Positions 34,621 to 55,323 of a stretch of DNA of 64,000 nucleotides are shown here, piece by piece. The notes under the pieces are model-generated. The model saw only the letters and a list, made by a program, of their open reading frames with translations, was not told where the DNA came from and ran no database searches. A program made the translations under genes and the position numbers. The DNA is from Aliarcobacter sp. (GTDB lineage: Bacteria > Campylobacterota > Campylobacteria > Campylobacterales > Arcobacteraceae), in contig JAQVLW010000008.1 of the NCBI GenBank assembly GCA_028703945.1, positions 7,288-71,287 of the forward strand, read 5' to 3'. How positions within the stretch are numbered: position 1 is the first letter of the stretch; each line of letters opens with the position of its first letter.

Positions 34621-34675
34621 AAATTGATAATGAACCAATATAAATTGATAATATGTAAAATAAAAATTGATAATG
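34606..34675 (+). repeat. Transposon end with three contiguous TnsB-type sites
   Basis: CAATAAAAATTGATAAT (34615), CAATATAAATTGATAAT (34636), AAATAAAAATTGATAAT (34658); 21-22 bp period. Confidence 0.88.
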
Positions 34676-34690
34676 AGAGTTTAATCTAGC

Positions 34691-36382: not shown

Positions 36383-36475
36383 TTGGCATTCCTAATTAAT
36401 AATACTATATTATAATAGTTTTAATAGCTGTATTTATATATAGAAAGAAAAATATATTAATAAGCTTCAATTATT

Positions 36476-38456: not shown

Positions 38457-38700
38457 AAATTTTAGTGATTATTTTATCTTATATTGACATGAATATATTT
38501 CTATAAATTCAAGTTATTTTAAAAATCTTATTATATAATCAACACGATTAAAGCACAACAGCTCTGCTAACGCTCTCACCCATTTGGGTATGTGAACCTG
38601 TATTTTTTAGTTACTTTGTGAATAGTTGCAATAGTATCTATACGAGGAGAGCAATATAGAAATTACACTATTGGAATTACATTATCAAAGGACAATCTAA

Positions 38701-39303
38701 GTGAATAGACTAGCTAATAAATCTTATGAGGCAATACGTCAAGAAGCAAAAGACTATGCTAAAACTCATAACCTAAAACTAACACTATCTCAAACAAAAG
38801 TTGCAAATTTTTATGGATTTAAAAACTTTTCAATTTTAAGAAAGTACTTTGATAAAAAATTACGTTCTAAAAAAGGAGATATTATGTTAGAACAATTAAA
38901 CAATATTAAAAAGAATTTAAAGAATATTAGAGAAAGAAAAGTTTCATCAAAAGAGATGCATGATTATCTGAATTCACTTAATCAAGAAGAATATTCAACT
39001 TTGGCTACTGCCTTTATAATTGGACGTCAGAGCTGGGATAGAGGAGTATATCAAGATAGTAATGAATGCTCTGCTTTCATAGAAGAAAATGAAGCTTATG
39101 GAATAAAGACGACAAGTCAAATGCTTGATGAAAAGTTTTTGACAAAAGAAGAAAGAAAAAAACAATACGATTTAACATATCAAATGGAAAAAAATGATGC
39201 TATAAAAATAGATAATTCTTACAATCATGATTGGCTTTCTTCTAAAACAAATTTAATAACTGAAACAGAAAAAGGGATTAAGCTAATAGAAGACTTAATA
39301 TAA
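38701..39303 (+). CDS. Hypothetical protein with a second strong internal start at 38884
   Basis: GTG start with AAGGA RBS; in-frame ATG at 38884 preceded by AAGGAG; helical motif YLNSLNQEEYSTLATAFIIGR (DUF3775-like, tentative). Confidence 0.6.
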   Translation: MNRLANKSYEAIRQEAKDYAKTHNLKLTLSQTKVANFYGFKNFSILRKYFDKKLRSKKGDIMLEQLNNIKKNLKNIRERKVSSKEMHDYLNSLNQEEYSTLATAFIIGRQSWDRGVYQDSNECSAFIEENEAYGIKTTSQMLDEKFLTKEERKKQYDLTYQMEKNDAIKIDNSYNHDWLSSKTNLITETEKGIKLIEDLI

Positions 39304-39307
39304 AAAG

Positions 39308-39329
39308 ACTGGAGCAATAATGTTCCAGT
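39308..39329 (+). terminator. Intrinsic terminator hairpin
   Basis: ACTGGAGCA-ATAA-TGTTCCAGT right after the 39303 stop, facing tniQ. Confidence 0.55.
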
Positions 39330-39411
39330 TTACTTAAAATTTTTTGGAGCTTGTAAAATAATCTTAACCTCCATACTATTTTATATTTAATTTTTTATAG
39401 TATTAATCTAT

Positions 39412-40596
39412 TTAATTAAATAAATGAAAATTATTTAAATTTTTATAAATTCTATTAAATCCTTTATGAATACTAGGATGACATCCAACAATTTCAGCAA
39501 CAGTTATAACATTAACTCGTTCACCTATAATTTCTAAATATTTTATTGCTCCGATAACTTCACTTTCAACTATTTCTCTGCCTTTTTTGTTTTCTATTGG
39601 CACTAAATCAAATATCAGATTTTTATACCAAAAAGAAGCATCTTTAAAGCCATGTAAAAAATCTCTATAAGTGATATGGTTTTCTTTTGCAAATTTTTGA
39701 AGATTGTGTGGATAGTTCTGGAATAAAAAGTAAATCATTGCCGTTAGGAAAAAATCTTTATAAATCATACTTACTTTTTTTGAACTATAATTTTCAAGTT
39801 TTTTGCAAAGATTCTTATACTCATTTATTAAAGGAAAATCATCTAAGATTAAACTTTCTTTTCTATCAAGTAAATAAACAAATCTTTTAAAACTATCAAA
39901 TACAAAAACCGAATGAACTTTTTGATTATTGATTATAAAATAGCCCTTATCTAAACCTTTTTCAAACCATTTTACAGTTTTTAGTCCATACTCATAGTTT
40001 GATTGGATTTTTGTAAAAAGTGTAGTACTTAAATCTTTTTCACATTTACTACAAACTGCTAGATTTTTATTATGTTTTATCTTTGAAAAATTAATCTTTT
40101 CATAACAAACCCAACATCTATCAGTTAAAAATATTTCATGTTTAGTACAAACATTATAAAATTGGTATCTCCATTTTTTCCTAAAATATGGAATTCTATC
40201 TTCAGCTAAACATTTTGGGCAATACATCAAGCCATAATGATTTCTTTTATCTACTAATCTTCTTATTTCATTAGGTGGGTATAGACAATTATTACAAATA
40301 TATAGAAAACCTTCTTCACTTCGAAGAGACATTTTAAAAATATCTTCTTTAGTCAAATTACTTTTATTTACTAAAGCTTCATATAATTTTTCATCATACA
40401 AAAAATCTATATCTGTCCTTGAAATCTGACTCCCCTCTTTTTTTACAAAAAGAGTTAAAAAAACTGAGAGTTGTCTTTTATGCTCAAGAGCAACTCGTGT
40501 AAGCCAAGAGCTTAATAATTCATCTGACAAAGGTTTTGGCACTATTAAAAAGAAATAGTCTTGAACCCAAGCATTATTTCTTTTTCTTTTTGACAT
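39412..40596 (-). CDS. tniQ: TniQ/TnsD-family target selector
   Basis: PKPLSDELLSSWLTR, YCPKCL...W...CTKH...L.DRCWVC zinc motifs; C-terminal HTH-like VAEIVGCHPS. Confidence 0.9.
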   Translation of the reverse strand: MSKRKRNNAWVQDYFFLIVPKPLSDELLSSWLTRVALEHKRQLSVFLTLFVKKEGSQISRTDIDFLYDEKLYEALVNKSNLTKEDIFKMSLRSEEGFLYICNNCLYPPNEIRRLVDKRNHYGLMYCPKCLAEDRIPYFRKKWRYQFYNVCTKHEIFLTDRCWVCYEKINFSKIKHNKNLAVCSKCEKDLSTTLFTKIQSNYEYGLKTVKWFEKGLDKGYFIINNQKVHSVFVFDSFKRFVYLLDRKESLILDDFPLINEYKNLCKKLENYSSKKVSMIYKDFFLTAMIYFLFQNYPHNLQKFAKENHITYRDFLHGFKDASFWYKNLIFDLVPIENKKGREIVESEVIGAIKYLEIIGERVNVITVAEIVGCHPSIHKGFNRIYKNLNNFHLFN

Positions 40597-40597
40597 T

Positions 40598-41467
40598 TTA
40601 TAACTTTGGTAAATATTCTATATCATCAATAATGATATATTCTCTTTTAGATTTGATTGCTTTAATTGCAGCTTTTTTTAATAGATTTACAGTTTTACCA
40701 ACCAACCCCTCTGATTGATAAAATAAAGCATTTAATAATTCTGAATTTTCAGCCATATTTGAAGCTTTTTTTAGAGGTAAACATCTTTCATAAGTAGCAA
40801 CAAATGACCTAAACTTTTTATCATTATTCCACCTTGGTAATTCAAGGGCAGGAAATCTTGAACCTGTTTCAGCTCCTATTGATAAGGCAGAATAAGCTTC
40901 TCTTGTACCTGCTAATACAATTGTTAGAGACAAACTATTACTTAACTGTTTTAAATCATCTATAAATGTTCTTTGCTTATTTAAATTTCCTCTTAATGCA
41001 CTATGTATTTCATCAATTAAAATCATTTTTGTACCAAGTTTATTCAAATAATGTTTTGCAAGATTTGCTTTTATTACTACTTTATCTGTTCTTTTTTGAG
41101 GTACACATAACTCATCTAAAATAAGACTATATAATCTGCTTTCATCAGGAATAGTTGGTGCTTGAAAATATATTATAGGTATTTCATAAATTGCTTCACC
41201 ATCTTTTGTGACATAATCAAGTTTTGTTTTATGTAGCTCATACATTCTTTTCAAAATTGCTGTTTTACCATTATTAGAATCTCCATAAACAAGTAATCCC
41301 TCATGTCTCATTTGAGGTGGGTCTAAAAATTTATCTTCTAAAATTTCTATTAATTTTACAGCTGAACCATAACCTATCCAATGGTCTTTTTTACAATATA
41401 AAATTCTCTCATCATCACTTTTACTTAAATATTCAAAAGCTTCTTTCGTTAAATTTCTATCATTCAT
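40598..41467 (-). CDS. tnsC: TnsC (TniB-type) AAA+ transposition regulator
   Basis: HWIGY, Walker A GDSNNGKT, Walker B ILIDEIH; compact 289 aa. Confidence 0.92.
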   Translation of the reverse strand: MNDRNLTKEAFEYLSKSDDERILYCKKDHWIGYGSAVKLIEILEDKFLDPPQMRHEGLLVYGDSNNGKTAILKRMYELHKTKLDYVTKDGEAIYEIPIIYFQAPTIPDESRLYSLILDELCVPQKRTDKVVIKANLAKHYLNKLGTKMILIDEIHSALRGNLNKQRTFIDDLKQLSNSLSLTIVLAGTREAYSALSIGAETGSRFPALELPRWNNDKKFRSFVATYERCLPLKKASNMAENSELLNALFYQSEGLVGKTVNLLKKAAIKAIKSKREYIIIDDIEYLPKL

Positions 41468-41470
41468 AAA

Positions 41471-43372
41471 TTAGCCTATTGGATAAATTTCATAATCATT
41501 ATTATCTTCTTCATTTTTTGGAGTTTTTGAAACATAAAAAGGTTGATTCTCTTTATAATCAATTCTTTCTTTGTCACTTTGCAAAGTTTTTTCTTGATGT
41601 TTTTTAGAGCTATCTTTTCTTCTTACAGATTTTTTCTCATATTTTGCTTGAGCAACATAAGAATGTAATCTTTCATGAGCTTCAAAAATATCATGAGGTT
41701 CTAATTCTCTTCCTTTTATTTTGGCTCTTGCATCTGCTATTGCACTTCTTAGTTCAGATAAATTCATTTTTGGTCTTCGTATATCTGCATAAGGAACCGT
41801 TATATAATCTTTTATATCTTCATCATAAATATAAAGTTTACTAATATCTCTTGGGTCACGTCTACAAACTACACTATTTTCTAAATCAGGTCTTAGTTTT
41901 TTGTATTGTGTTGGGATTATCCATTTTCTAAGAGTTTCACTAAAATAAGTGACATAGTCAATTGTTATTCCATTTTTTTGAACTGTTCTATTTATAGCAG
42001 GTAATAAAGCCATTCTAAGTTTCAAAGTATCAGCAGGAACAACTGGTAAAAAAGGAATAGACTTATCTTCACCAATTCCATATAATCCTTGATAAAATTT
42101 CTCTTCAGGAGTCATTCCTAAAGATGTATGTTCTGTTTTATGATACATATTTATTACAAAATCTAAGTACCATTTTTCTAACTCATCTATTGTCATAGTT
42201 GATTCTTCTTCCGAATCATATTTTCCTTTTGCAAAAATATTTGAAAAAGTGCCTCCTGGTAATTGATGAACTTTTTTCATACAAGTACCTATAACTCTTT
42301 CAACGGCAGCACCGAATTCTGGTCTAGCAACAGGACGATAAATATCTTCAACTCTGTATTCTTTACAAAAGTTTTGTAAACTAGCTGACCTGAAATCCTT
42401 CCCATTGTCCATATGAACCTTCTTAGGAAGACCATAAACCACCCATTCACCTTCAATTCCATATCTTTTTAAAAAATCATCTTTAGGTAAAATAGCATTC
42501 AATAAGCATTGTCCTACATTAAAATAACTTGGTCCTTCAAAACTAATATAAAATCCAAAAATCATTCTACTAAAAACATCAATTGCCACAGTAATAATTG
42601 GTCTTCCAATTGGCTTTCTTGTCTCTTCATCAACTAAAATAACATCAACTTTTGTATGGTCAATTTGAATAATATCCAAAGGCATTTTCACTTCAGGGAA
42701 ATGACCTGTCATTCCCCTTGTTTCATTAACTCGAATACCATTCCTATGTTTTGCAATAATTTTTGGATGTAAATTATTGATTCTACTTCTTACTGTATTT
42801 TTTGTGGGTGCTTTTAGTTCCATATTCTTACACTTGTAAACTATCTCTTCATAAATCATTTGCAAAGGATACTTTTGTTTATTTAAATAGTATTCTTCAA
42901 TTACATCATTTATTATTGTATCCACTGATTCATCTAATCTACTTTTACCTTTTGCACCACAAAACTCTCTTTTTGAGGCTAGAGAACTAACATTTTCATA
43001 CTGTTCATAAGTATTTAACCAACGATAAATAGTAGCTATTCCCTTTTTATGTTTTTTTGCAACTTTTAAAACATCCGCTGCTGTTTTATCTTTTTTATCC
43101 AACAAAGATTTGATAATTTCATATCTTTCATTTGCTTTATCAAAATCTTTTTGTTCTAAATCAACTAAGGTTTTAATATTTTCTTTTATGTTTTTTGGTT
43201 CATTTATTAAATCTTTTACTTTTACTATTTTTTCATAAAATGGAATGACATCTCTTTTTATTAATACTTCATCAAAAGAAGGGTAACCTTTAACCACATA
43301 CTCTAAATCTTTATAAAATATTTTTGAGTTGATTTCAAATTTTATTATATTACTCACAAGATAACTCCACAA
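41471..43372 (-). CDS. tnsB: TnsB/TniA DDE transposase (likely GTG start at 43357)
   Basis: QIDHTKVDV...GRPIITVAIDVFSR, HMDNGKDF and VERVIGT: DDE triad intact. Confidence 0.94.
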   Translation of the reverse strand: MWSYLVSNIIKFEINSKIFYKDLEYVVKGYPSFDEVLIKRDVIPFYEKIVKVKDLINEPKNIKENIKTLVDLEQKDFDKANERYEIIKSLLDKKDKTAADVLKVAKKHKKGIATIYRWLNTYEQYENVSSLASKREFCGAKGKSRLDESVDTIINDVIEEYYLNKQKYPLQMIYEEIVYKCKNMELKAPTKNTVRSRINNLHPKIIAKHRNGIRVNETRGMTGHFPEVKMPLDIIQIDHTKVDVILVDEETRKPIGRPIITVAIDVFSRMIFGFYISFEGPSYFNVGQCLLNAILPKDDFLKRYGIEGEWVVYGLPKKVHMDNGKDFRSASLQNFCKEYRVEDIYRPVARPEFGAAVERVIGTCMKKVHQLPGGTFSNIFAKGKYDSEEESTMTIDELEKWYLDFVINMYHKTEHTSLGMTPEEKFYQGLYGIGEDKSIPFLPVVPADTLKLRMALLPAINRTVQKNGITIDYVTYFSETLRKWIIPTQYKKLRPDLENSVVCRRDPRDISKLYIYDEDIKDYITVPYADIRRPKMNLSELRSAIADARAKIKGRELEPHDIFEAHERLHSYVAQAKYEKKSVRRKDSSKKHQEKTLQSDKERIDYKENQPFYVSKTPKNEEDNNDYEIYPIG

Positions 43373-44018
43373 ATGAATTCATAGTAACTTTGGCTGATTG
43401 TAAATTACTTTTTAGTTTTTCTTTACACACTAAATCCCAAATACAATTTGATATAGTTGGATAATCTATAAGATTTTGTGAGATTAAATTTACCAGTTCA
43501 AAAGCTGATATTTTTTTATTTTCTTTTAGTAAGTTTATAATTTGATTTTCATATTTATTTTCAATGGGATATAGTTTGTATCTATAAAGAAAATCTAAGT
43601 TATCCAAATATATTTCACTGTGATTTTGTTCAGTATAAACTTCAAAATCTAAATTTAATTTATTTGAAGAGACTTTTGCAGATTCAAATCTTTTTTCAAA
43701 ATATTCTTTCTTTTTTTCAATTTCATTTGTGTATTTAACTTCAACAATACTATCTTTTTTTGATGAGTTTTTAACTCTTTTAATATAACAATCTGCACTA
43801 TAAATTTGATTTTTACCATTAAAAAAAATTTCTATTTGAGGTTGTTCTTGATAGGAGATTACCTCATTATCAAATTCTAAAGCTAAAAAATGAGCTTTTT
43901 CAAGTTTTGATTCAAAACCTATTGAAGTATTATTTTTAATACTTGGAAAATGACCAGTAATTGAACGATAATTTTTTTTAATTTTGCGCTGAGTAAAACT
44001 TATAAATAAATCTTCCAT
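43350..44018 (-). CDS. tnsA: TnsA endonuclease
   Basis: SITGHFPSIK...FESKLE...YQEQP...YSAD...EVKY PD-(D/E)xK motifs. Confidence 0.9.
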   Translation of the reverse strand: MEDLFISFTQRKIKKNYRSITGHFPSIKNNTSIGFESKLEKAHFLALEFDNEVISYQEQPQIEIFFNGKNQIYSADCYIKRVKNSSKKDSIVEVKYTNEIEKKKEYFEKRFESAKVSSNKLNLDFEVYTEQNHSEIYLDNLDFLYRYKLYPIENKYENQIINLLKENKKISAFELVNLISQNLIDYPTISNCIWDLVCKEKLKSNLQSAKVTMNSFVELSCE

Positions 44019-44032
44019 AGTTATTTTCCAAA

Positions 44033-44059
44033 TAATTTGATTAATTTGATTAATTTGAT
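44033..44059. repeat. Three perfect tandem copies of TAATTTGAT upstream of tnsA
   Basis: TAATTTGAT x3 read directly, 15-41 nt upstream of the tnsA ATG. Confidence 0.85.
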
Positions 44060-44221
44060 TATATAGTAAATTAACTTGTATTTATTCTGAAATATTTCTG
44101 CGTATTATTATTTATTACTTATTTAAATACAAAAAAGATTTAAATACTAATTTATTTTAAATAATTAAATTATTTTTTAAGTTAATCAATGTAAAATCTT
44201 CCATATATTAGGAGTATTTAT

Positions 44222-44950
44222 ATGAAACTTGCCGTTGTTAGTCATAGTGGTGGATTAGATAGCACTACGCTTATGGGATATATGTTAGAAAATGGATATG
44301 TTGTTCAACCTATTAATCTTAATTATGGACAAGAAAATGTGGTGGAAATGAAAGCACAAGATAATGTGGTTAACTATTTCCAAGACAGATATGGGAAAAA
44401 TAGAGTTTATGATACTATAAAACTTGATTTAACACCAATTGTAAATCCCATCCAAAACATAATAAATAATTTTAGGGAAAATGGTTTTGATAATAAAGAA
44501 TTAGATGATGCAAACTTGAAACACTATTTTCCAAACAGAAATTTACTGTTTTCTTCTATTGCGGGTGTATTTGCAGAAACACTTGCATACTTTAATGGTC
44601 TTAAAGAGACAGCAATATGTATTGGTATACACAAACATACTACTTATAAACCCTACTAGGATATTACATCTGATTTTGCAAATGCTGTTCAAAATGTAGT
44701 AAATTTAAATGATGCAATGAAAGTAACTATTGCTACACCTTTTGTAGAATGGACAAAAAGTGATATAGTAAAATATATGTTAGGGAAAAATATACCATAT
44801 GAACTTACGTGGACTTGTTATGAACCACAAATTAATGAAAAGTATTATGTACCTTGTAAGGTGTGTCAAGCTTGCATTGAGAGAGAAAATGCAGGTATTA
44901 AAAATAATCTTAGTAGTATTAATAAATATATGATAAAAAAGGATAAGTAA
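44222..44950 (+). pseudogene. queC: Divergent QueC-family gene interrupted by one in-frame TAG (44657-44659)
   Basis: SHSGGLDS and FPNRNLLF upstream; TCYEP...CKVCQAC downstream in the same frame; junction reads KPY*DITSDF (probably W, TGG to TAG). Confidence 0.85.
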
Positions 44951-46746
44951 TGCCAACTATTACACCAAAATATTTAGGTTCAATCAATGATAATATGCAT
45001 AACAATAATTCACCTGTAGTTATGAAACGAGTTATAAAAGTTAAAATAAGTGAATTGGCACAATGGTTTCAATATACTAGAGAAAAACAAGGTGGACGGA
45101 ATCCTTTTAAAGTATCTGACAGCTCCCTAATACAAATTCATGAAAGAATCCAAAGAGGAAAAAATGAATCAGGTTTTGTGTTACAAGAAAAGAATAAAAT
45201 AGATGAGATAAAAGAAATTTTGTTAGGAATACATAAAACTAATAAAAAAATATACCTAGGTTCTTTAGTTTGGAATATTAGAAAAATAGATACAAATAAG
45301 TTTGACATATTATCAATATCTAAACTAGATGGCTCGTTACCTGAGTACAAATTAGAGATTGAAGTAAATAAAATATACTTAACTGATTCCGCACATAGAC
45401 ATTTCGGGATAGTAGAAGCATATAAAGAATATCAAAAAAATTCAGATTTATATCCATTATTTAATGAAAACTTTGAATTTTTAGTTGAAATATATAATTT
45501 AACAGCTGATGATGAACAAAACTTATTTAATGAACTAAATTCTAAGCAAAAGAAAATAACAGCTGCTAAAGAAAAACAACTAGACAATAGTACCCCTCTT
45601 GGCAAAATAAAAGATGAAATAATTGATTATGATATGGAAAATGAAAGAATATTTTATAATAATATTGAATTAAACTCAAATCAAAATACTAGACATACAT
45701 TGATGACAATGTCAGTTTTTGTCGCAAGTATAAAAGAAATGTTTAAAAATGAGATTAATGAGGTTTATGCTAATGATACAGTTAATGATACATTAAAAGA
45801 AGACATTGTTTCTTACTATTGTAACTTTTTCGGTGAGTTAAAGAATACAATAATAATTAAATATATCAGTATAACTGGTGAAGAAAAAAATATTTCTCCA
45901 TTTGAGAATTTATATATGAAATACATTTATATTGTTGAAAATGCAGATTTTGATAATGATGAAATATATGAAAACAAGCTTGAGGAAGCAAGAAATACTG
46001 CCAAATTAATAAATTCAAAAATTAGAGAACAGGATTTAATAACGCATAATATTACAATTAAAGCATTATCGAGACTAGGAAAATTAATACGAAAGATGTC
46101 AAATTGGAAAACAGTTATTGAACAAATACAACAAAACTTAATTATTGGATATGATGGAAAATTCTTACAAAAAACTAACAGTGAACTTTTTGAAGCTTAT
46201 CCAGGGAACCAAGAAGCACTAGTAAAATTTAATGAAGATGGTTCTTTAAATATGCAAGTTGTAAGTTGGAAAACTAATGAGCTATTTCATTATTTTACAG
46301 ATAAATTAGAATTACGAAAAGAACCTATTTTATTTTTTGACCAAGATGATTTTAAAAAAATATTAACTAATAATGATAGTATAAAAGTTTCAATAAATAA
46401 TCCCACTATTATTAAGTTTAAACATACATTCTTTATTGCAGATAATTTATATGACGAAATCACAACTAATGATTTGAATATGAATATACTTGCCGTAGAT
46501 AATTGGAGTAAAATTAAATTTACAGGCAAGACTTCTTTTAAGGCAATTATCAAAGATTATGATGAAGGATACATAGATGAAGTTTATGATAGAGGAATCA
46601 GAAAAGCCACAGCAATTTTTGAACTAACACTTCCAGCCTTTGAAAACGAAGCTCATTTAAAACACGGATTAAGAATAAAAGTTAAATCATTTAATATTTC
46701 ATTTGATAATGAAATTGATTATATATTAAGTACTTTTTCGGAATAA
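44950..46746 (+). CDS. DndB/DGQHR-like protein with variant DSAHR motif, 598 aa
   Basis: YLTDSAHRHFGI and EQNLFNELNSKQKK resemble the DGQHR core; start overlaps the queC stop. Confidence 0.65.
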   Translation: MPTITPKYLGSINDNMHNNNSPVVMKRVIKVKISELAQWFQYTREKQGGRNPFKVSDSSLIQIHERIQRGKNESGFVLQEKNKIDEIKEILLGIHKTNKKIYLGSLVWNIRKIDTNKFDILSISKLDGSLPEYKLEIEVNKIYLTDSAHRHFGIVEAYKEYQKNSDLYPLFNENFEFLVEIYNLTADDEQNLFNELNSKQKKITAAKEKQLDNSTPLGKIKDEIIDYDMENERIFYNNIELNSNQNTRHTLMTMSVFVASIKEMFKNEINEVYANDTVNDTLKEDIVSYYCNFFGELKNTIIIKYISITGEEKNISPFENLYMKYIYIVENADFDNDEIYENKLEEARNTAKLINSKIREQDLITHNITIKALSRLGKLIRKMSNWKTVIEQIQQNLIIGYDGKFLQKTNSELFEAYPGNQEALVKFNEDGSLNMQVVSWKTNELFHYFTDKLELRKEPILFFDQDDFKKILTNNDSIKVSINNPTIIKFKHTFFIADNLYDEITTNDLNMNILAVDNWSKIKFTGKTSFKAIIKDYDEGYIDEVYDRGIRKATAIFELTLPAFENEAHLKHGLRIKVKSFNISFDNEIDYILSTFSE

Positions 46747-46750
46747 ACTT

Positions 46751-47548
46751 ATGATTGAATATGAACTTTTTTATGAAAGATTAAATAACAAACGATGTTT
46801 AAAAAGTAATCGTATTTTGAATAAAGATGATTTTCTGATTAGTAGCAAAGAGTTCGTTAACTTATATCAAACTACATATAGTGAATCGGAATATAAATTT
46901 ATAAAAAATATTATCTCATGTATACATGCAAATAATAGAAATATTTTATTATTAAATGAACTATTACTAAATAGAATTCAATCATTCTTTAATTTATTAC
47001 TGAAATCAGACAAACAATATATTAAAGAGCGAGTTATACATTTATATATTTTCTTATTTTGGAACAAATTAACTGGAGATACTGAATTCATAAATAAAAT
47101 AAAAAAAGAAGAATTGTTATACGAAGGTCAAGTTATTGATAATACAGATAAGTTTCAACAAAATTTACTACCGAAAATAGCAAATAATTGTGATTTAATC
47201 TATTATAACCACAAAGAAAGTACACTTGAGTTAATTGAGATAAAAAATGTTGATTTAGACGATAGAGCAATCGCTCAAATTCAAAGATATTATCGTAATA
47301 CAAACTATATTTGTGAAACAATAGATCATCAACTAAGTATATTATATTTAAAACCAACATTAATAATTAAACATGAAAATTTAACTCAAAATCAAACTAA
47401 AACTTCACTTTTAGAACATTGGCAGACATTTCCAACATATTTTAAAGAATTATTGAATATATATAGTTTTGAATTTTGTTATACAAAAGAAACATTAAAA
47501 CTCATTAATTTAAAACCAAAATTAAAATCATTACTAAAAAACAACTAA
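46751..47548 (+). CDS. PD-(D/E)xK nuclease-family protein (NucS-like C-terminal motif)
   Basis: CDLIYY...LELIEIK...RAIAQIQRYY. Confidence 0.6.
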   Translation: MIEYELFYERLNNKRCLKSNRILNKDDFLISSKEFVNLYQTTYSESEYKFIKNIISCIHANNRNILLLNELLLNRIQSFFNLLLKSDKQYIKERVIHLYIFLFWNKLTGDTEFINKIKKEELLYEGQVIDNTDKFQQNLLPKIANNCDLIYYNHKESTLELIEIKNVDLDDRAIAQIQRYYRNTNYICETIDHQLSILYLKPTLIIKHENLTQNQTKTSLLEHWQTFPTYFKELLNIYSFEFCYTKETLKLINLKPKLKSLLKNN

Positions 47549-47571
47549 CTATACAAATTTAGGATTATAAT

Positions 47572-48129
47572 ATGTCAAAAAAACAATATGAAGAACAAAC
47601 AAAGAAACAAACAAAATGTGAATTTTTAATTAATGTGTATAATCTATCTTTTAATAATATAAATAGGCATATTACAATAGTTTGGCAATCAGTAAGTGTT
47701 TTAATTGCTTCATTTGTTTCAATTATATTTAGTGAAAAATATAACATATCAATTTATCCATCATATACTATATCACTTGGATGATAGCTCATCTATTAGA
47801 TAGTAACACTTGGTATAGACGAAATATACATATTATAACAAATATAGAAAGACAAGAAAAGGTTACATTATTTTTTCACTAATCATCTAGAGCCTAAAAA
47901 GATTATAGATACTTTTCTTATTCAAATTTATTTTGCTTTAATAGTATGGTTTATATCTTTATTTTATACATTTTATAAAGCAACTAGAGAGGTTTAATTT
48001 AGTTTATTTCTTCACATCTTTAGCTTTTACTATGCTATGTATTTGTATTTTGTATACTTATCATAAAAAAATATTGAAAATATTAAAAAGTTACTACACG
48101 AATCTCCTGGTGTAAATATGAAAGATTAA
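47572..48129 (+). pseudogene. Frameshifted remnant of a multi-TM membrane protein
   Basis: Successive frames give ...VWQSVSVLIASF / WMIAHLLDSNTWYRRNIHIITNIERQ / LHYFFTNH...IQIYFALIVW / KKLLHESPGVNMKD*. Confidence 0.5.
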
Positions 48130-48166
48130 GTTATGATAGCAATAATATTAATAAGAATGGAGAAAT

Positions 48167-48925
48167 ATGATTAATTTTTTACAAAACCGTACATTATTGA
48201 ATAAATTAGAGATAAGTTCAAATTTTATAAGTCAACGTATGATATATGATTCTCATGCTATTCAATATTTGAGGGAATTACCTCCTAATTTCTTAGAATT
48301 ACAATATAAAAGAAATAAAAAAGAAGAAATTACAAAACATTTAAAAAGTATATATTCAAATATAACTGATGAAAAAGTCGAAAATGTTCTATCTCGCGTT
48401 CAAAATTTAATTAAATATGTAACAAATACAAATAGAAAAGATTATGAAGATTTTACAAAACAACATAATTTTAAAGAAAAAAACTGGAAGAGAATTGAAA
48501 GATGTGAAGTTTGTGGTTTCAAATTTAGAATTCAATCAGATGCAACATTAGAACACGTTTTGCCTTTATCTTTGGGTGGAGCTGATAATGATACTAATTG
48601 GCAATTATTATGTAAATCATGTAATGGTCATAAAACAAATTACTGGGGAGTTTCTGATTTAAAACTTGTTGACTCCTTTATTTCTAAAGATATATTAAAA
48701 CTTACAAAAGTTGAAGATATTCAAAAAAGACTTCCAAAAGATATTAAATATTTTATTATAGAATCTCAAAAAAGAAAATGTTCTTATTGCCAAAACACTA
48801 GTAGTGAAGCTAAAATAGAAGTAAAATTAGAACTTACCTCAGTTTTAAATATAGATAGTTTTAGTACAATATGTGAAACATGCATAAAAACAAAAAAAGT
48901 ATCTAGAAATATATTATTAAATTAA
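48167..48925 (+). CDS. HNH endonuclease with a second degenerate CxxC...CxxC module
   Basis: CEVCG...LEHVLPLSLGGADNDTNWQLLCKSCNGHK; later CSYC...ICETC. Confidence 0.88.
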   Translation: MINFLQNRTLLNKLEISSNFISQRMIYDSHAIQYLRELPPNFLELQYKRNKKEEITKHLKSIYSNITDEKVENVLSRVQNLIKYVTNTNRKDYEDFTKQHNFKEKNWKRIERCEVCGFKFRIQSDATLEHVLPLSLGGADNDTNWQLLCKSCNGHKTNYWGVSDLKLVDSFISKDILKLTKVEDIQKRLPKDIKYFIIESQKRKCSYCQNTSSEAKIEVKLELTSVLNIDSFSTICETCIKTKKVSRNILLN

Positions 48926-48937
48926 AAAGGAGATAAT

Positions 48938-50065
48938 GTGCCAAAATGGTTTACATTTCCATGCCAAATTATTAAACAAGCGAAAGATGCACCAGAAATT
49001 GCAGTTTTTACATGTGATGCGTATGATTTATTTGAAGTTTCAACAGTTTCAAGACTAGAGGAATCTAGTGATGGATATCAACGGATGATTAATAAAAAAC
49101 GACAAAATGATATAAGCAAATACATTGATACTCCGAGAGCTCTTATTCCAACATCTATTGTGTGTGCTGCTGAAGAAAATGATGATTTAGTAAAAGTTGT
49201 CAATAAAAAACAAATAGAAGGTACAATAGATAGATGGACTGCTGATTTAAAGATAAAGTGTGATAAAAATAAAAAACCTTGCTTAGTGATTGATGGTCAA
49301 CACAGATTGTATGGTATTGCTAGTTCTTCAAAACCCACTTTTCCAGTTTCTGTTAATCTATTATTAAATGCTAAAACAGTAACCCAAGTTTTACATTTTA
49401 TCATTATTAATAATAAAGCTACAAGAATTGGGAATGCTTTAATCAATGAATTAAAAGGAAATATTGCCCATCTAAGCCAAAAAGAAGATGAAGAATTAGA
49501 ACATTTATTGTCTCAACTTGGTGTGGAAAGCATTACAAATGAAACATTTATAAGTTTATTGAATGATGAGAAAAATGCTTTCGGTAATATTTTAGATTTC
49601 AAAACTAATAAGATGCAAGTGGTTAGTTCTCAAACTTTAAAAACATTAATCAAAAAAAGTAGAACTTCTGGATTTTTATCTAAAATAGATAATAATGATG
49701 AAAATCAAATTATTGCATACAACTATATGTGGGAAGGCATTAAAAAATCTTTTGAAAAAAGATGGGATTTCGAACTAAGTTTAGCTACTGAAGTTTTACA
49801 GAAACAAAAGACAAAAACAGATTTTAACAAAGAGAAAAAGATTTTTCATAGTGGTGCGATTGATGTTATTGGTGGATTATTAGATGATGAGTTAAAAACA
49901 ACAGCCTATCGAAGAGAATGGGAAGAAAATATTAGCAAAGTTTATGATATTACGGTTAAGATATTATCAAAAGTACCAAAAAGTTTTTGGGAGGAAATTA
50001 CAATAGATAATACTTCCAAAGGGAAAAGAGATTTTAGAGAAAAATTTGAAAAAGCAATTTTATAA
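48938..50065 (+). CDS. DGQHR domain protein
   Basis: GYQR, LVIDGQHRLYG and FIIINNKA motifs; GTG start with AAGGAG RBS 12 nt after the HNH stop. Confidence 0.88.
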   Translation: MPKWFTFPCQIIKQAKDAPEIAVFTCDAYDLFEVSTVSRLEESSDGYQRMINKKRQNDISKYIDTPRALIPTSIVCAAEENDDLVKVVNKKQIEGTIDRWTADLKIKCDKNKKPCLVIDGQHRLYGIASSSKPTFPVSVNLLLNAKTVTQVLHFIIINNKATRIGNALINELKGNIAHLSQKEDEELEHLLSQLGVESITNETFISLLNDEKNAFGNILDFKTNKMQVVSSQTLKTLIKKSRTSGFLSKIDNNDENQIIAYNYMWEGIKKSFEKRWDFELSLATEVLQKQKTKTDFNKEKKIFHSGAIDVIGGLLDDELKTTAYRREWEENISKVYDITVKILSKVPKSFWEEITIDNTSKGKRDFREKFEKAIL

Positions 50066-50719
50066 GTATTTTTCCCATCCATCCTTTCTAATCAAACATG
50101 ACGGGCACTCTCCACACCCATATCCCCAATCAAATTTGGTGATATGGTCATCGTTATAGCAAGTATGAGACTTTTCTAAAACTATTTCAAGTACTCCTTC
50201 ATCTTTTGATAATCGAAAAATTTCTGATTTGGTTAAATTTATAAGTGGATAGTGGAATTTTATATTTGATTCACTTCCTAGATTCAGAGTTCTTTCAATA
50301 TTTATTATAAATTCTTCCCTACAGTCTGGGTATCCCCTATAATCTGTTTGGTTAACCCCAATAATAATATTATCAATTTCTTGCTTTTGCGCAAAAGCAT
50401 GTGCAAGTGTGAAAAATATTGCATTTCTATTGGGTACAAATGATGAGGGTAAGTTTGTTTTGACTCTATGATGGATAGAAATATCTTGAGTAGAATCTAT
50501 AAGTGCAGAATCATTAAGTTGGGTAAAAGCACTGATATTCAGAAGTGTATTTGGTACACCTAAAATATCAGCTATTTTTTTGGCTTGCACTATCTCAATT
50601 TTATGCTTTTGACCATAATCAAAAGTAATCGTCTCGACAAAATCAAACCTATTTTTTGCCCAACCTAGACAAGTAGTACTGTCTTGCCCACCACTAAATA
50701 CAACTAAAGCTTTCTTCAT
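50060..50719 (-). CDS. queC: 7-cyano-7-deazaguanine (preQ0) synthase
   Basis: FSGGQDSTT, FVPNRN, GYPDCR, TCY...CGECPSC. Confidence 0.95.
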   Translation of the reverse strand: MKKALVVFSGGQDSTTCLGWAKNRFDFVETITFDYGQKHKIEIVQAKKIADILGVPNTLLNISAFTQLNDSALIDSTQDISIHHRVKTNLPSSFVPNRNAIFFTLAHAFAQKQEIDNIIIGVNQTDYRGYPDCREEFIINIERTLNLGSESNIKFHYPLINLTKSEIFRLSKDEGVLEIVLEKSHTCYNDDHITKFDWGYGCGECPSCLIRKDGWEKYL

Positions 50720-50722
50720 AAC

Positions 50723-51859
50723 TTATCCTTTCAAAAGTTGTTGTAATAAGAAAATCCTAAATAAATCAATATCTTTACTTGTATTTTGTATATCCATTAT
50801 ATTTCGAATATATCCATCGTCAGCAAAATCATATTTACCCTTTTGCCAATCAATTTTATCTTTAATAGGTTCTAAATATTTCTCAAAATCTGAGATAATA
50901 TATGACCCCTCTTCTAAATAATTGGGATTCTTTCTAAGAATCTTTTTATAAATGATATTCTCCATTATATTTGATAATGCCAATATTCCTACTCCATGAG
51001 TTAGCCTTGTTTTAGTAGGTGGTAATTTCCAATCTTTTGGAAAAGTTTTTTCTACTGCCCCCCAAAAAGCATTTAAAAGACTAACCATTGAATCAATGTC
51101 ATTAGTAGCCTTTCCTGTTACAACATTTGATGTAAAATTAAACAAGGTTCCATTCATAAGACTCGCATTTAAAAGCTTTATAATCGTATTGTCTTTTATA
51201 TATCCATCAGGAAAGGTATGTGTCTTTATTGTATGAAAAAAAGGAGAATGTGTTTGAGTATTTAATATGGAGATTAATTTATTTGGTATTAATTTATCTT
51301 TATATGTAGAAGGTAACTCACTATTAACTTCTGGCAACAACTCATATATAAGTGATTTTGCAAGTGGTTTAGTATTATTTATAAGAATAAATTGTTCTCT
51401 TTGTTCATCCGTATTATCTGTTATAAATGCATTAACAACAACCTCAAAATTCTTATTTTGAAGAGTATTCAGAGCTGTTGCTCTTTGTTGTCCATCAACT
51501 ATTTGTCCATATATATTATCTTGAGGAATACAAATATAACCAAAATCATCATTTATTCTTTCATATTTAACATTTGAATCAAAACATACAACTATTGAAT
51601 TTGCAAGTATAGAATTTTCATCTGTAAGATAATTAACTATCTCTTTTATATGTTTTGAAACTTCTATTCTTTGGTACCCTAATAGTCTACCGGTATCATC
51701 TCTTTTTATTCTATCAATTGATGCAAAATTTAGGATATCTTTTCCCATTGCTTTAAATGTATAGACTTCTTTATTATATTGTTTTATTTTTATTGCTGGA
51801 AATTTTAGCATATATTGTATTCCTTTCTTAATTCCTCTAATTCTCTTTGAAATTGCCAT
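50723..51859 (-). CDS. dpdB: DpdB-like DGQHR protein, second copy (likely start 51811)
   Basis: RIKRD...GYQRIEVSKHI, IVDGQQR, EQFILINNTKPL, TRLTHGVG. Confidence 0.75.
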   Translation of the reverse strand: MAISKRIRGIKKGIQYMLKFPAIKIKQYNKEVYTFKAMGKDILNFASIDRIKRDDTGRLLGYQRIEVSKHIKEIVNYLTDENSILANSIVVCFDSNVKYERINDDFGYICIPQDNIYGQIVDGQQRATALNTLQNKNFEVVVNAFITDNTDEQREQFILINNTKPLAKSLIYELLPEVNSELPSTYKDKLIPNKLISILNTQTHSPFFHTIKTHTFPDGYIKDNTIIKLLNASLMNGTLFNFTSNVVTGKATNDIDSMVSLLNAFWGAVEKTFPKDWKLPPTKTRLTHGVGILALSNIMENIIYKKILRKNPNYLEEGSYIISDFEKYLEPIKDKIDWQKGKYDFADDGYIRNIMDIQNTSKDIDLFRIFLLQQLLKG

Positions 51860-53052
51860 AAATTATGAAAACCTCGTCTTCTATTCCGATTTGAATTTCT
51901 AAATATAATTGTTTCTATCTTTACACTTTGACAAATCTCACATTGACATCGTTGCCAATATTTTGAGGAAAGAATATCTCTGTATTTGTCAATAGGTACT
52001 TTATCTCTAAAAAGAATTTCGTAATTTCCTAAATGCATTAGAACATTTTCTAAACTTTCATTCCCCTTATCATAAGAACGAATAGAGTCCAGTGCCTTTT
52101 TTTCTAAAATTTGGGCTATCTTTTGGTCAACAACACCAGAAGAAATTTTTCTTTTTAATGCAGGAGTACTTACTGCTGAGGGTATTCTTATTGCCGTATA
52201 ATATTTAGTTGGAGTAAAATAATTATCTTTACTATCTTTAAATGCTTTGATTAATGGTGATGTTGAATCAAAACTAGTAATTTTATATTTTACAAATCTT
52301 TCAAGTTGTTTTGCTTTTGCAAAACCAAGAAGATGTAATCTTATTTCTAAACCAATTTCTTCTCTTACTGCTTTTACTATTTCTTCACAAGAATCAACAT
52401 CCAAAGGAACCATTCCTCCGATTGCTATATAATCATAACCCATTTCAACAAGTTCTCTTGCAGCTTTTTTCATACTTAATGGGGACCAAGCCTGAATTAC
52501 ACCAATAGGATGAAATTCTACTTTTTGTTTTTTGCATTCTTTTAAAAATTCTCTTGCATTATTTATTGTAATATCATATCTCTTTTGCATCTCTTTTGTA
52601 ACTTGAAACTTATCATCAAAGTCTGAATCAGTATCAAATCTTTTATCATATTGAAATATAATATGATCTACAGACATTCCATAGTCAAACATACATTCTT
52701 CATAATATTTAACGGTTTCATCTACTTTATAAGGAGGTTCATCAAGTTGATGATAACTAAATGCTCCGTTATCTCCAAAAACCTCACCTTCATAATATCG
52801 TAAAAATCGTTTGACCCCCTCCATTTTTAATCGGATGGTTTGTTCTGAAGAATATGCTCTACTAGATGATTTATAAACTCCATCATCTAATAATCCTCTC
52901 GAAATAAGCATACCATCATAAGGTTTCTTTTCAAAAACTTCATGTGGATATTTATCTGTTCTTTGAATTACTCTATTTTTTGAGAACTCATCATTTATAA
53001 AATCGTAATTAGGGTCTATTGTATCTTGACAATCTGCAAATATAAATTTCAT
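51805..53052 (-). CDS. dpdA: DNA 7-deazaguanine transglycosylase DpdA (TGT-like)
   Basis: F.D.QD.IDPNYDF...YPHEVF..PYDGMLIS, GDNGAF, SVDH, LHLLG, SFDSTSP, C.C.IC...RRGFHN. Confidence 0.88.
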   Translation of the reverse strand: MKFIFADCQDTIDPNYDFINDEFSKNRVIQRTDKYPHEVFEKKPYDGMLISRGLLDDGVYKSSSRAYSSEQTIRLKMEGVKRFLRYYEGEVFGDNGAFSYHQLDEPPYKVDETVKYYEECMFDYGMSVDHIIFQYDKRFDTDSDFDDKFQVTKEMQKRYDITINNAREFLKECKKQKVEFHPIGVIQAWSPLSMKKAARELVEMGYDYIAIGGMVPLDVDSCEEIVKAVREEIGLEIRLHLLGFAKAKQLERFVKYKITSFDSTSPLIKAFKDSKDNYFTPTKYYTAIRIPSAVSTPALKRKISSGVVDQKIAQILEKKALDSIRSYDKGNESLENVLMHLGNYEILFRDKVPIDKYRDILSSKYWQRCQCEICQSVKIETIIFRNSNRNRRRGFHNLWQFQRELEELRKEYNIC

Positions 53053-53057
53053 GTTCT

Positions 53058-54236
53058 TTAAATCTCTTTATTAAATTGTCTAATTAAATATGCAGTTAAC
53101 ATTCTTTTATGTCCAGGAGTATTTTGTATTTCTTTCCATTCTAACCCTAATTCTTCCCATGTTCCACTAGACCATCGACAATATGATTTCAATTTAGTTA
53201 ATTCTTTAACCACTCTTATTTCTATTTTTTTATCATGCGGATTAACATTTCTCATAATTGTATCCATCAATGCCCCTATAGCAAATATACCTGTTCCATG
53301 CATGAGCCTGCTTTGATTAGTTGGTTTTCCCCAATCTTCATGAAACACTTTCTTAACTCCATTCCAGTAAATATATATGATTTTTAAAATACTTTCATAA
53401 TCTGTTTCTCCATTATTTGTATTTACATATGGAAATAAGCATCCGGCAGTATTATTTATTGAATTTCTTAAAATCGTAATAATAGAATTATGTGCAATTA
53501 CTGGTTTAAATGTTCCATCATTTTCAATTGATACCTTTTGAATCAAGCCATAAAATGGTGATTTAGGCTCAAAATTTAGTGATTCTGTTATAGATGAAGG
53601 AATTTTCCTCGAATCTAGATCAGAAGGGAACATCCCATTGATTGTTGGCAATAATTCATCAATTAAACCTTTTGGTAGAGGTTTTGTTTTATTTACTCTA
53701 ATAAATTGTTCTCTTTGTATTTCTAAATTATTCGCAATAAAAGCAATAACAGGTATTGGTAAATCTGGTTTATTACATTTATTTAAAGCCAAGGCTCTTT
53801 GTTGTCCATCAACAATCCAAGCTGGTCGGAATCCTTCTTCTTTAAGAGGAATACTTAAAATTCCACTCATAGAATATTTGTCCGAACTTAATTTACTTCC
53901 TCTTGCTTTTGTAAATTTTACTTCGTCGTTAATAGCTAAAAGAATTGAATTAGGAAATAAAATATTATCAGTATTTAAATATTCCAAAATATCATTTATA
54001 TGTTTTTTAACTTCTTTTCTTTGTAATCCATGAAGTTGTCCTTGTTCATCCCTATGAATTCTAGAAATATCAGCAAAAGATAATATATCTTTTGCTGGTA
54101 TAAAAAAACTGTATATTGTTTGACTATTTTGCTTTGTTTCTAAAGCTCTTGTTGTAAAACTATTTTTCATTATAAATACTCTTTTTTCTTTCATTAAATA
54201 ACTTATGAAATCTTTTTTGCTCGCAAGAATAAACAT
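53058..54236 (-). CDS. dpdB: DpdB DGQHR protein (likely start 54170)
   Basis: ISRIHRD...QRKEVKKHI, WIVDGQQR, EQFIRVNKTKPLPKGL, SRLMHGTG; directly upstream of dpdA. Confidence 0.82.
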   Translation of the reverse strand: MFILASKKDFISYLMKEKRVFIMKNSFTTRALETKQNSQTIYSFFIPAKDILSFADISRIHRDEQGQLHGLQRKEVKKHINDILEYLNTDNILFPNSILLAINDEVKFTKARGSKLSSDKYSMSGILSIPLKEEGFRPAWIVDGQQRALALNKCNKPDLPIPVIAFIANNLEIQREQFIRVNKTKPLPKGLIDELLPTINGMFPSDLDSRKIPSSITESLNFEPKSPFYGLIQKVSIENDGTFKPVIAHNSIITILRNSINNTAGCLFPYVNTNNGETDYESILKIIYIYWNGVKKVFHEDWGKPTNQSRLMHGTGIFAIGALMDTIMRNVNPHDKKIEIRVVKELTKLKSYCRWSSGTWEELGLEWKEIQNTPGHKRMLTAYLIRQFNKEI

Positions 54237-55059
54237 TCTTTCTTAACATAAATAGACCTTTTGATGCTGATGAAACTTGTTCTTCTTGAATTTGTTTATC
54301 TATTATTTTTTCCAACTCTCTATTTGAAAGTTGTTTACCTTTCTTAGAAACCTCTATTTCATATTGATTTAAAAATATATTAATATGCTCTTGCAAAACA
54401 TTATGATTTAATTCTAAATTATTTTTAACAATTTCTTTTGATAACCATCTTAGACATCTTTGTCCTAAATTTATTAAAGTTCCTGATTCATATTTATTAA
54501 ATCTAGTATCAAAATTCAGAAAACTTTTACTGAAACTTAAATTATTCTCTTTTGAAACATTAATTATAAAAACTTTATCTCCATATTTATCAATTAAGTC
54601 TTCAATATATTTATTCATAGCATTTAAATATTCTTTAGATAAATAAATTAGTATTACAGAAGCATCTACTAATTTGGATATAGAATATTCATTTATTTTT
54701 TCCCACCACATTTCATTTGGAAAATGTCTGGATACACTATCTAGTTGATTTCTTGAAAAGGTTATTCCATAAGATGAAATGATTTTATTTGAATCAATTA
54801 ATCCATAGCCAGCAGAAGCAATCAGCACTAATGTAGAAAATTTTATATTAAATTCTTTCTCTGTATCTAAAACTGCCTTCCAAGAAACACCTTTATACAA
54901 ATCTCTAGCTTTTAGATTCTTATATTCAGATTTTTCAAGATTCATTTTCCATTCTGAACTTATTTTATCAATAGTATCATTATTATAATTTCTAAATAAA
55001 TGTATCTCATTTGGTAATACTTTTTTACCATTTGTACAATTTGTTATTATATATACCAT
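54160..55059 (-). CDS. dpdC: DpdC-like (YaaA/DUF328-like) protein
   Basis: ARDLYKG...ASAGYGLI...ISSYGITF YaaA-like motifs; first gene of the dpd operon. Confidence 0.65.
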   Translation of the reverse strand: MVYIITNCTNGKKVLPNEIHLFRNYNNDTIDKISSEWKMNLEKSEYKNLKARDLYKGVSWKAVLDTEKEFNIKFSTLVLIASAGYGLIDSNKIISSYGITFSRNQLDSVSRHFPNEMWWEKINEYSISKLVDASVILIYLSKEYLNAMNKYIEDLIDKYGDKVFIINVSKENNLSFSKSFLNFDTRFNKYESGTLINLGQRCLRWLSKEIVKNNLELNHNVLQEHINIFLNQYEIEVSKKGKQLSNRELEKIIDKQIQEEQVSSASKGLFMLRKNVYSCEQKRFHKLFNERKKSIYNEK

Positions 55060-55235
55060 ACTACACTTTCAGTTTTATTTAATGTTATATTATATCTATA
55101 AATGTATTCTATTTTTATTAATTTATGCATCTCATTCCTTTAAATATTTGTATAATCTAACTATTCAATACTCTATTATCATATTATTTTTTACACATGA
55201 TTTTTTATCTTATTATCTTTAAATACAAAATATTG

Positions 55236-55257
55236 TACAATCGTGCAAAAAGAAGGT
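55236..55257 (+). promoter_or_regulatory. Putative outward-facing -10 box (TACAAT) and RBS (AGAAGGT) in the transposon end
   Basis: TACAAT at 55236-55241 resembles GATACAATCG upstream of pyrG; AGAAGGT 9 nt before ATG 55267. Confidence 0.45.
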
Positions 55258-55266
55258 ATTCAACAT

Positions 55267-55323
55267 ATGAAAAATCTATTATCAATTTTTATTGAATATG
55301 ACATAAAACAAAAAGAAGCATAA
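55267..55323 (+). CDS. Hybrid 18-aa mini-ORF (MKNLLSIFIEYDIKQKEA) crossing the right end
   Basis: Starts in the element, in frame with the displaced mnmG tail, stops 1 nt before ATG 55325. Confidence 0.4.
   Translation: MKNLLSIFIEYDIKQKEA
55278..55303 (-). repeat. Transposon opposite end with terminal TnsB-type site
   Basis: rc TGTCATATTCAATAAAAATTGATAAT; a weaker site may lie at 55175-55191. Confidence 0.88.
55304..55308 (+). repeat. Target-site duplication, right copy (TAAAA)
   Basis: Directly follows the terminal ACA; identical to 34601-34605. Confidence 0.9.

Follow-up and report, generated by a model that had tools for sequence, protein, structure and literature searches.

A DNA 7-deazaguanine modification operon of the Dpd type, found in a 64,000-nucleotide (nt) stretch of Aliarcobacter sp. 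DNA (contig JAQVLW010000008.1 of assembly GCA_028703945.1; hereafter, the window), carries one dpdB gene on each side of dpdA. The twin dpdB arrangement is standard and ancient in a Dpd subtype that is widespread and has been annotated before. Judged from its sequence relationships, the dpdB gene that lies between dpdC and dpdA (the upstream dpdB) is a paralogue of single origin that was placed at this position. The two encoded DpdB proteins possibly combine into a heteromeric ParB-like ATPase clamp. The descriptive part of this account, comprising the gene identities, layout, prevalence, phylogeny, motif retention, purifying selection and transposon context, is held with very high confidence.

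The operon consists of five co-directional open reading frames (ORFs) on the minus strand at window positions 50060-55059, in the order dpdC, dpdB, dpdA, dpdB and queC:

54160..55059, minus strand: dpdC, 299 amino acids (aa), first gene of the operon, with a PADLOC DpdC match; predicted amidohydrolase that converts 2'-deoxy-preQ0 (dPreQ0) to dADG (2'-deoxy-7-amido-7-deazaguanosine).
53058..54170, minus strand: upstream dpdB, 370 aa from the ATG at 54170; ParB-like nucleoside triphosphatase (NTPase) with a VDGQQR motif, the 'up-type' paralogue.
51805..53052, minus strand: dpdA, 415 aa; DNA-guanine transglycosylase with an NF041059 match.
50723..51811, minus strand: downstream dpdB, 362 aa from the ATG at 51811; the canonical 'down-type', also with VDGQQR.
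50060..50719, minus strand: queC, 219 aa; 7-cyano-7-deazaguanine (preQ0) synthase with a TIGR00364 match.

The gene order given in a preliminary description of this DNA is confirmed by NCBIfam equivalogs and PADLOC. The upstream and downstream DpdB proteins score 424 and 361 bits, respectively, against the NCBIfam DpdB model NF041060 (cut-off 300), DpdA scores 500 bits against NF041059 (cut-off 200), and QueC scores 244 bits against the TIGR00364 equivalog (cut-off 150). DpdC is matched by the PADLOC DpdC model over residues 3-294 (E-value 2.6e-41) and gives a sub-threshold score of 24.9 bits with Pfam DUF6884 (cut-off 30). The stop/start coupling proposed at 54170/54160 and 51811/51805 is likewise borne out by the sequence. 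The ATG of the upstream dpdB at 54170 lies within dpdC, whose TAG occupies 54162-54160, generating an 11-nt overlap. The ATG of the downstream dpdB at 51811 and the TAA of dpdA at 51807-51805 are combined in a 7-nt overlap that reads ATGCTAA. The remaining gaps are 5 nt (upstream dpdB to dpdA) and 3 nt (downstream dpdB to queC). The longest dpdB ORFs open farther upstream (54236 and 51859), and the starts of homologues match 54170 and 51811. The two DpdB proteins are 34% identical over 375 residues (E-value 1e-61). Both contain an N-terminal GxQR motif, and the DGQQR motif previously noted in the two proteins reads VDGQQR in each. A promoter scan of the operon region returned 42 sites versus 39.6 expected, which is uninformative in AT-rich DNA.

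The layout was surveyed in 85 dpdA loci, which consist of 80 loci from a dpdA-anchored scan using one genome per species, together with the window and look-ups. In 74 of the 85 loci, dpdA is flanked on either side by an intact dpdB gene, in the order dpdC-dpdB-dpdA-dpdB; the 85 loci are the nearest relatives of the window DpdA, so that the resulting 87% overstates the two-DpdB share among all Dpd systems and is an upper figure. The sampled phyla are Pseudomonadota, Actinomycetota, Nitrospirota and Campylobacterota, as well as Armatimonadota and Abditibacteriota with single-copy loci. The other 11 loci comprise six true dpdC-dpdA-dpdB singles, one locus with an upstream remnant (L073), two with a split downstream copy (L055 and L082) and two that are cut by contig ends. 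In Novacetimonas maltaceti (L073:9690-9992), the upstream dpdB is reduced to a remnant of ~110 aa. In two metagenome bins (L055:11287-12392 and L082:7717-8830), the downstream copy is found in two ORFs, possibly through assembly error.

The closest homologues of the downstream copy include those of Aliarcobacter butzleri and Sulfurovum, whose loci read dpdC-dpdB-dpdA-dpdB, as does the locus of the actinomycete Streptosporangium roseum. On rhizobial plasmids, the RefSeq Prokaryotic Genome Annotation Pipeline (PGAP) names both genes DpdB. In the enterobacteria-dominated GATOR-GC survey, a 2025 genome-mining study, dpdB exceeds every other dpd gene in its number of extra copies (801, from 2,335 unique windows), and Aliarcobacter is among the islands that contain dpdC and lack the restriction operon (PMC12235509). 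That the twin DpdB might be a special feature of this locus is contradicted by the recurrence of the layout in the 85 loci, the PGAP labels and the 801 extra copies. The window operon adds one example to an already annotated layout, and the question of what the upstream DpdB does is general to the subtype. A search for true DpdB proteins in 401 genomes of the phylum of the window and 400 genomes of the class of a second locus (L023) gave positives only in the genomes of the window and L023 themselves. A search of a limited collection of papers returned no study of the role of the second DpdB copy and none on DpdB heteromers, and a search of the Protein Data Bank returned no DpdB structure entry.

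To place the two copies, a maximum-likelihood tree was calculated from 79 DpdB sequences with distant third-DGQHR proteins as the outgroup. The upstream copies form a single clade (support 100/100) on a stem of 0.91. The single DpdB of the Salmonella type is located outside this clade and clusters with another single DpdB and actinobacterial downstream copies (94/85). The upstream clade is nested among the downstream and single types, with moderate support at the deep nodes (87/55 and 91/78). Matching subgroups of Actinomycetota, Campylobacterota and Pseudomonadota are present in the upstream and downstream sets, and the two copies from the window fall in the Campylobacterota subclade of each set. 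Because the same subgroups recur in both sets, the pair has been co-inherited since a single duplication.

Given that the Salmonella-type DpdB groups with the downstream copies, it is the downstream copy that is canonical, and the added paralogue is the one located between dpdC and dpdA. The label 'dpdB2', which the preliminary description gave to the downstream gene, is accordingly inverted, as this gene is both the positional and the phylogenetic counterpart of the Salmonella-type DpdB. The Salmonella-type order is exemplified by an Enterobacter cloacae plasmid, which encodes a DpdA ~93% identical to that of S. Montevideo (Salmonella enterica serovar Montevideo; structure 7UI4) and reads dpdC-dpdA-dpdB followed by dpdD, dpdK, dpdJ and dpdH. 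All of the six true single-copy loci and the Enterobacter plasmid system contain the downstream type, and the sole locus with a decayed copy has lost the upstream one. Within the 85 loci, every upstream-type copy is accompanied by a downstream copy or by what remains of one.

Downstream-type DpdB proteins are also encoded on two phage-like metagenome contigs (L010:10001-14511 and L011:2184-6096). These proteins (47% identity) nest within the Campylobacterota downstream clade. Their neighbours are a PAPS-reductase-like protein of 462 aa and a DpdC-like protein of the DUF6884 type, and no DpdA was found within 10 kb of them.

Both dpdB copies are under strong purifying selection. Across 58 locus pairs with usable synonymous divergence (dS), the median ratio of nonsynonymous to synonymous substitution rates (dN/dS), computed from multiple alignments, is 0.079 for the upstream dpdB, 0.073 for dpdA and 0.088 for the downstream dpdB. 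Relaxed selection on one copy, which the preliminary description had named as a sign of redundancy, is not seen. In Campylobacterota, the downstream copy evolves approximately twofold faster, with a dN of 0.22 versus 0.09 for the upstream copy between the window and A. butzleri. Six motifs (Q, GxQR, VDGQQR, QF..N, LIxELLP and SRLxH) are kept at ≥90% in both clades. Forty-three invariant columns are common to the two clades, 19 are specific to the upstream clade and seven to the downstream set. The upstream clade also contains a 6-10-residue insert with a conserved RG ahead of the DGQQR strand.

AlphaFold2 (AF2) models of the upstream and downstream proteins, with predicted local distance difference test (pLDDT) values of 84 and 91.5, respectively, exhibit an identical order of secondary structure elements. 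The best, weak fold-search matches are ParB, PadC and SspE for the upstream model and ParB, Noc, PadC and sulfiredoxin for the downstream model; with E-values of 0.02-0.6, these matches agree with the published fold assignment and are not independent proof of it. ParB, Noc, PadC, sulfiredoxin and SspE are also the folds that have been reported for S. Montevideo DpdB (PMC10164549).

The chemistry of the pathway is established for S. Montevideo. DpdA swaps guanine for preQ0 using Asp95 and Asp256, and this exchange requires ATP hydrolysis by DpdB, a homodimer for which dimerisation of the ParB-like ATPase domains around DNA has been proposed; DpdC turns dPreQ0 into dADG and does so in vitro independently of DpdA and DpdB (PMC10164549). 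The chemistry described in the preliminary account agrees with these reports. The window DpdA aligns over its full length with the S. Montevideo structure 7UI4 (E-value 2e-96) and keeps Asp95, Asp130, Asp256, Phe99 and Phe265 (S. Montevideo numbering). In place of His181, which contacts the edge of the base, the window DpdA has Gln (Q187). Gln occupies this position in each of the 79 loci that do not belong to the single-DpdB set, which are two-DpdB loci plus a few with truncated or decayed copies; His is found in five of the seven single-DpdB loci. Gln at the His181 position marks the two-DpdB subtype and may bear on target recognition.

By homology to the S. Montevideo system, the operon should write 7-deazaguanine into the DNA of its own cell. 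The host genome carries preQ0 genes of its own, with queC-queD-queE on contig C28, and a housekeeping tgt on contig C20. The queC of the operon is 67% identical to the queC of a Sulfurovum dpd island and 33% identical to the host gene on C28, and is an extra copy.

The five genes constitute one translationally coupled operon that moves as the cargo of a Tn7-like transposon. In the proposed mechanism, island QueC would supply preQ0 together with host QueD, QueE and QueC, DpdA would replace selected guanines by preQ0 in an ATP-dependent reaction that requires DpdB, and DpdC would hydrolyse dPreQ0 to dADG. The two DpdB proteins would assemble on DNA as a heteromeric clamp that replaces the homodimer of one-copy systems and retains activity at both of its nucleotide sites. 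The heteromer is suggested by the homodimer precedent, the tight co-inheritance of the pair, the translational coupling on both sides of dpdA, the equal constraint on the two copies, the absence of the upstream type on its own in the sampled loci and the distance matrices of the two copies, which correlate with r = 0.96, or 0.56 as a partial correlation given dpdA. On this evidence, the heteromeric clamp is the leading, still tentative reading whose probability falls slightly short of even. The descriptive part and the heteromer taken jointly, as the best explanation of the whole, are given somewhat better than an even chance.

Several observations weigh against the heteromer. Two separate homodimers would account just as readily for the intact NTPase sites of the two copies. 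In many heterodimeric NTPases, one of the two sites degenerates, and here both are intact. The mirror-tree correlations are inflated by shared history and derive from non-independent pairs. The S. Montevideo DpdB homodimer works by itself, without entering into a stable complex with DpdA (PMC10164549), and a partner is therefore not intrinsically required. A stronger form of the heteromer reading, in which the upstream DpdB is an obligate partner and an asymmetric heterodimeric clamp, together with Gln at the His181 position, would lead to a choice of target sites or a modification density different from that of the Salmonella model, is considered unlikely on present evidence. If it were true, studies of Dpd machinery would up to now have covered only a reduced, atypical form.

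Another explanation is that the two proteins form separate homodimers with divided labour, in which the downstream DpdB would drive DpdA, as in Salmonella, and the upstream DpdB would perform another ATP-dependent task on DNA, such as the placement of DpdC, control over the density or sites of modification, or the relay of modification status to restriction or effector genes. The complete NTPase motifs of both copies would suit this arrangement, and the 19 upstream-only invariant positions and the RG insert suggest that the upstream protein has a distinct surface. Moreover, the upstream dpdB overlaps dpdC, DpdA tracks the downstream copy more closely than the upstream copy (partial correlations of 0.69 versus 0.18), and the replacement of His181 by Gln in all two-DpdB loci indicates that the subtype may differ in target recognition. 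Divided labour is disfavoured by the in vitro independence of DpdC from DpdA and DpdB (PMC10164549) and by the occurrence of dpdC in loci with a single DpdB and no upstream type. The effector sets vary between loci, with dpdD-K types in L009, L012 and L014 and a pair of 598- and 265-aa proteins in the window, which argues against a tie to one effector. Divided labour, with any of these tasks for the upstream protein, is rather unlikely.

Regulation by the upstream DpdB, through DndB-like binding to the operon promoter and tuning of the modification level, is improbable. DpdB belongs to the DndB/ParB-like superfamily (Pfam DndB matches), and the surroundings of dpd islands commonly include a third DGQHR gene or more. 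DndB has been reported to be a regulatory DNA-binding protein (PMC5699537). However, the downstream copy scores only 23.5 bits with the DndB equivalog TIGR03233 (cut-off 328) and the upstream copy gives no match, and the upstream copy keeps every NTPase motif and is as constrained as dpdA. The upstream dpdB also lies inside the operon, translationally coupled rather than separately controlled, and the 244 bp upstream of dpdC contain a single AAACTG copy and no repeat array of (A/T)AACTG. No dnd-family match was obtained among the ORFs scanned between 34.7 and 64 kb of the window. The suggestion in the preliminary description that the second DpdB might act as DndB does is thus the weaker idea. 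Simple redundancy, with one copy dispensable and drifting to loss, could draw on the mere 34% identity of the copies, the faster downstream copy in Campylobacterota and the broken copies in L073, L055 and L082, but it is effectively refuted because both copies are under purifying selection equal to that on dpdA (dN/dS 0.08-0.09), and also conflicts with the retention of the pair across phyla in 74 of the 85 loci, the congruent subclade structure of the two sets and the origin of two of the three broken cases from metagenome bins, where the frameshifts are possibly assembly errors.

The operon is carried by a mobile element and is adjoined by further nuclease and DGQHR genes:

34606..55303, no strand assigned: Tn7-like transposon of 20,698 bp that carries the operon, inserted in the last codons (3' end) of mnmG.
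44222..44949, plus strand: queC-like pseudogene with an in-frame TAG at 44657.
44950..47548, plus strand: DndB-like protein (598 aa) and putative nuclease (265 aa), convergent with the operon; candidate effector pair.
48167..50065, plus strand: HNH endonuclease (252 aa) and third, divergent DGQHR protein (375 aa); the 3' end of this pair and that of queC share 6 nt.

The carrier is a Tn7-like transposon, with Tns genes, termini, target duplication and empty site all present. The tnsA, tnsB, tnsC and tniQ genes occupy a central position on the minus strand (44018-39412), with cargo on both sides. The tips of the element read TGT...ACA and are bordered by a target duplication of 5 bp (TAAAA). 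Of the repeated TnsB-type sites, which read A[AT]AAATTGATAAT, three belong to the mnmG end and one to the opposite end. The empty site is represented by a genome of the same genus (L106), in which the joined flanks align unbroken. The operon begins with dpdC 244 bp inside one transposon end, and the same end is located ~230 bp upstream of dpdC in A. butzleri (L008). In a Helicobacteraceae bin, the dpd cassette is preceded by the tniQ gene of another Tn7-like element. In A. butzleri (L008:60-140), the ends of two Tn7-like elements meet (...TTTTTGACA AAATA TGTGAGATTC...), which indicates tandem elements at one attachment site.

The window does not contain a complete Dpd restriction-modification system (dpdA-K). 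No dpdD-K model matched the ORFs neighbouring the operon, except for a marginal DpdF match over the HNH motif (E-value 0.0014). Relatives that include L009, L012, L014 and L098 carry DpdD, a phospholipase D (PLD)-domain protein (DpdK in L098) and a large helicase (DpdJ in L098). In the window, the 598-aa DndB-like protein contains a DGQHR domain at a sub-threshold 41.7 bits. The 265-aa protein displays a conserved D...ExK...QIQRYY arrangement, a PD-(D/E)xK-type pattern that assigns it at the motif level only. This pair recurs beside dpdC-dpdB-dpdA-dpdB in L015 (L015:12911-15503), A. butzleri (L008:4822-7351), Myxococcus and Planctomycetota. In Janthinobacterium, its neighbour is dpdD, and in Campylobacterota and Myxococcus, it is convergent with the operon. 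Additional coordinates of the recurring pair are L102:10001-12575, L103:10001-12611 and L104:10001-11803, the last from Planctomycetota, where just the 600-aa gene of the pair is called. The 598/265-aa pair is a candidate effector of Dpd systems, whether alternative or additional, and may stand in place of dpdD-K here.

The HNH gene of the second pair matches Pfam HNH (E-value 3.2e-13), and the third DGQHR gene starts 12 nt after it. The third DGQHR protein scores 108 bits with TIGR03187 and 97 bits, below the cut-off, with NF041060, and is positioned outside the DpdB clade on a long branch of the 79-sequence tree. The HNH and third-DGQHR pair is absent from L008 and L015, and a third DGQHR gene is present in L014, L016, L023, L054 and L072. 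In the queC-like pseudogene, the TAG replaces a codon that specifies Trp in the intact L014 homologue. The L015 copy is broken elsewhere, by a different stop and a frameshift. Because the breaks in the window and L015 differ, the gene was inactivated independently in the two islands. The 145-aa QueC-like ORF at 44222 was also considered as a functional short protein or a recoded gene, given its similar length in L015, and was rejected on account of the breaks at different codons. Beyond the tns genes, at window positions 36476-38456, an HNH protein weakly resembles phosphorothioate-dependent and type IV restriction enzymes (PADLOC mREase_IV, 2.2e-9), and an unassigned 326-aa gene is found just upstream of its gene.

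The biochemistry of 7-deazaguanine insertion into DNA all comes from a one-DpdB system, and a large group of Dpd systems with a broad phylogenetic range keeps two equally constrained DpdB proteins. The role of the upstream copy, as a partner, specificity factor or regulator, would fill a gap in the knowledge of ParB-like NTPases that drive base exchange in double-stranded DNA. The operon is compact (~5 kb) and should be easy to clone, and the module can travel as Tn7-like cargo without canonical dpdD-K.

The Dpd system of S. Montevideo (7UI4; PMC10164549) resembles that of the window in its TGT-like (tRNA-guanine transglycosylase-like) DpdA with the same catalytic aspartates, its ParB-like DpdB with DGQQR, its DpdC, its dependence on the preQ0 pathway and the downstream-type dpdB that directly follows dpdA. 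The Salmonella type differs in containing one DpdB, the order dpdC-dpdA-dpdB, the dpdD-K restriction genes and His181, whereas the window system has an upstream-type DpdB between dpdC and dpdA, Gln at position 181 and an attached queC, and lacks dpdD-K. DndB, SspE and GmrSD, which are ParB-like NTPases with DGQHR or DGQQR, share the superfamily and the nucleotide-binding motif with DpdB. The window DpdB proteins contain no fused nuclease domain, and neither copy is a DndB orthologue; DpdB also lacks the EHxxP motif of SspE (PMC10164549).

Further counterparts are two-DpdB islands that RefSeq already annotates. On plasmid B of Sinorhizobium americanum CCGM7, preQ0 genes come after dpdC-dpdB-dpdA-dpdB, and PGAP gives the name DpdB to both copies there and on an Agrobacterium vitis plasmid. 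The window differs from the proteobacterial two-DpdB islands in its 35-45% identity to them, its Campylobacterota subclade and its Tn7-like carrier with other nuclease modules. The nearest relative is the A. butzleri island (GCA_001010665.1, L008), with identities of 62% for dpdC, 83% for the upstream dpdB, 78% for dpdA and 69% for the downstream dpdB. The tnsABC-tniQ genes of the two islands are 70-90% identical, and A. butzleri carries a homologous pair of 567- and 273-aa proteins. In contrast to the window, the A. butzleri island contains no queC, no pair of HNH and third DGQHR genes and no queC-like pseudogene.

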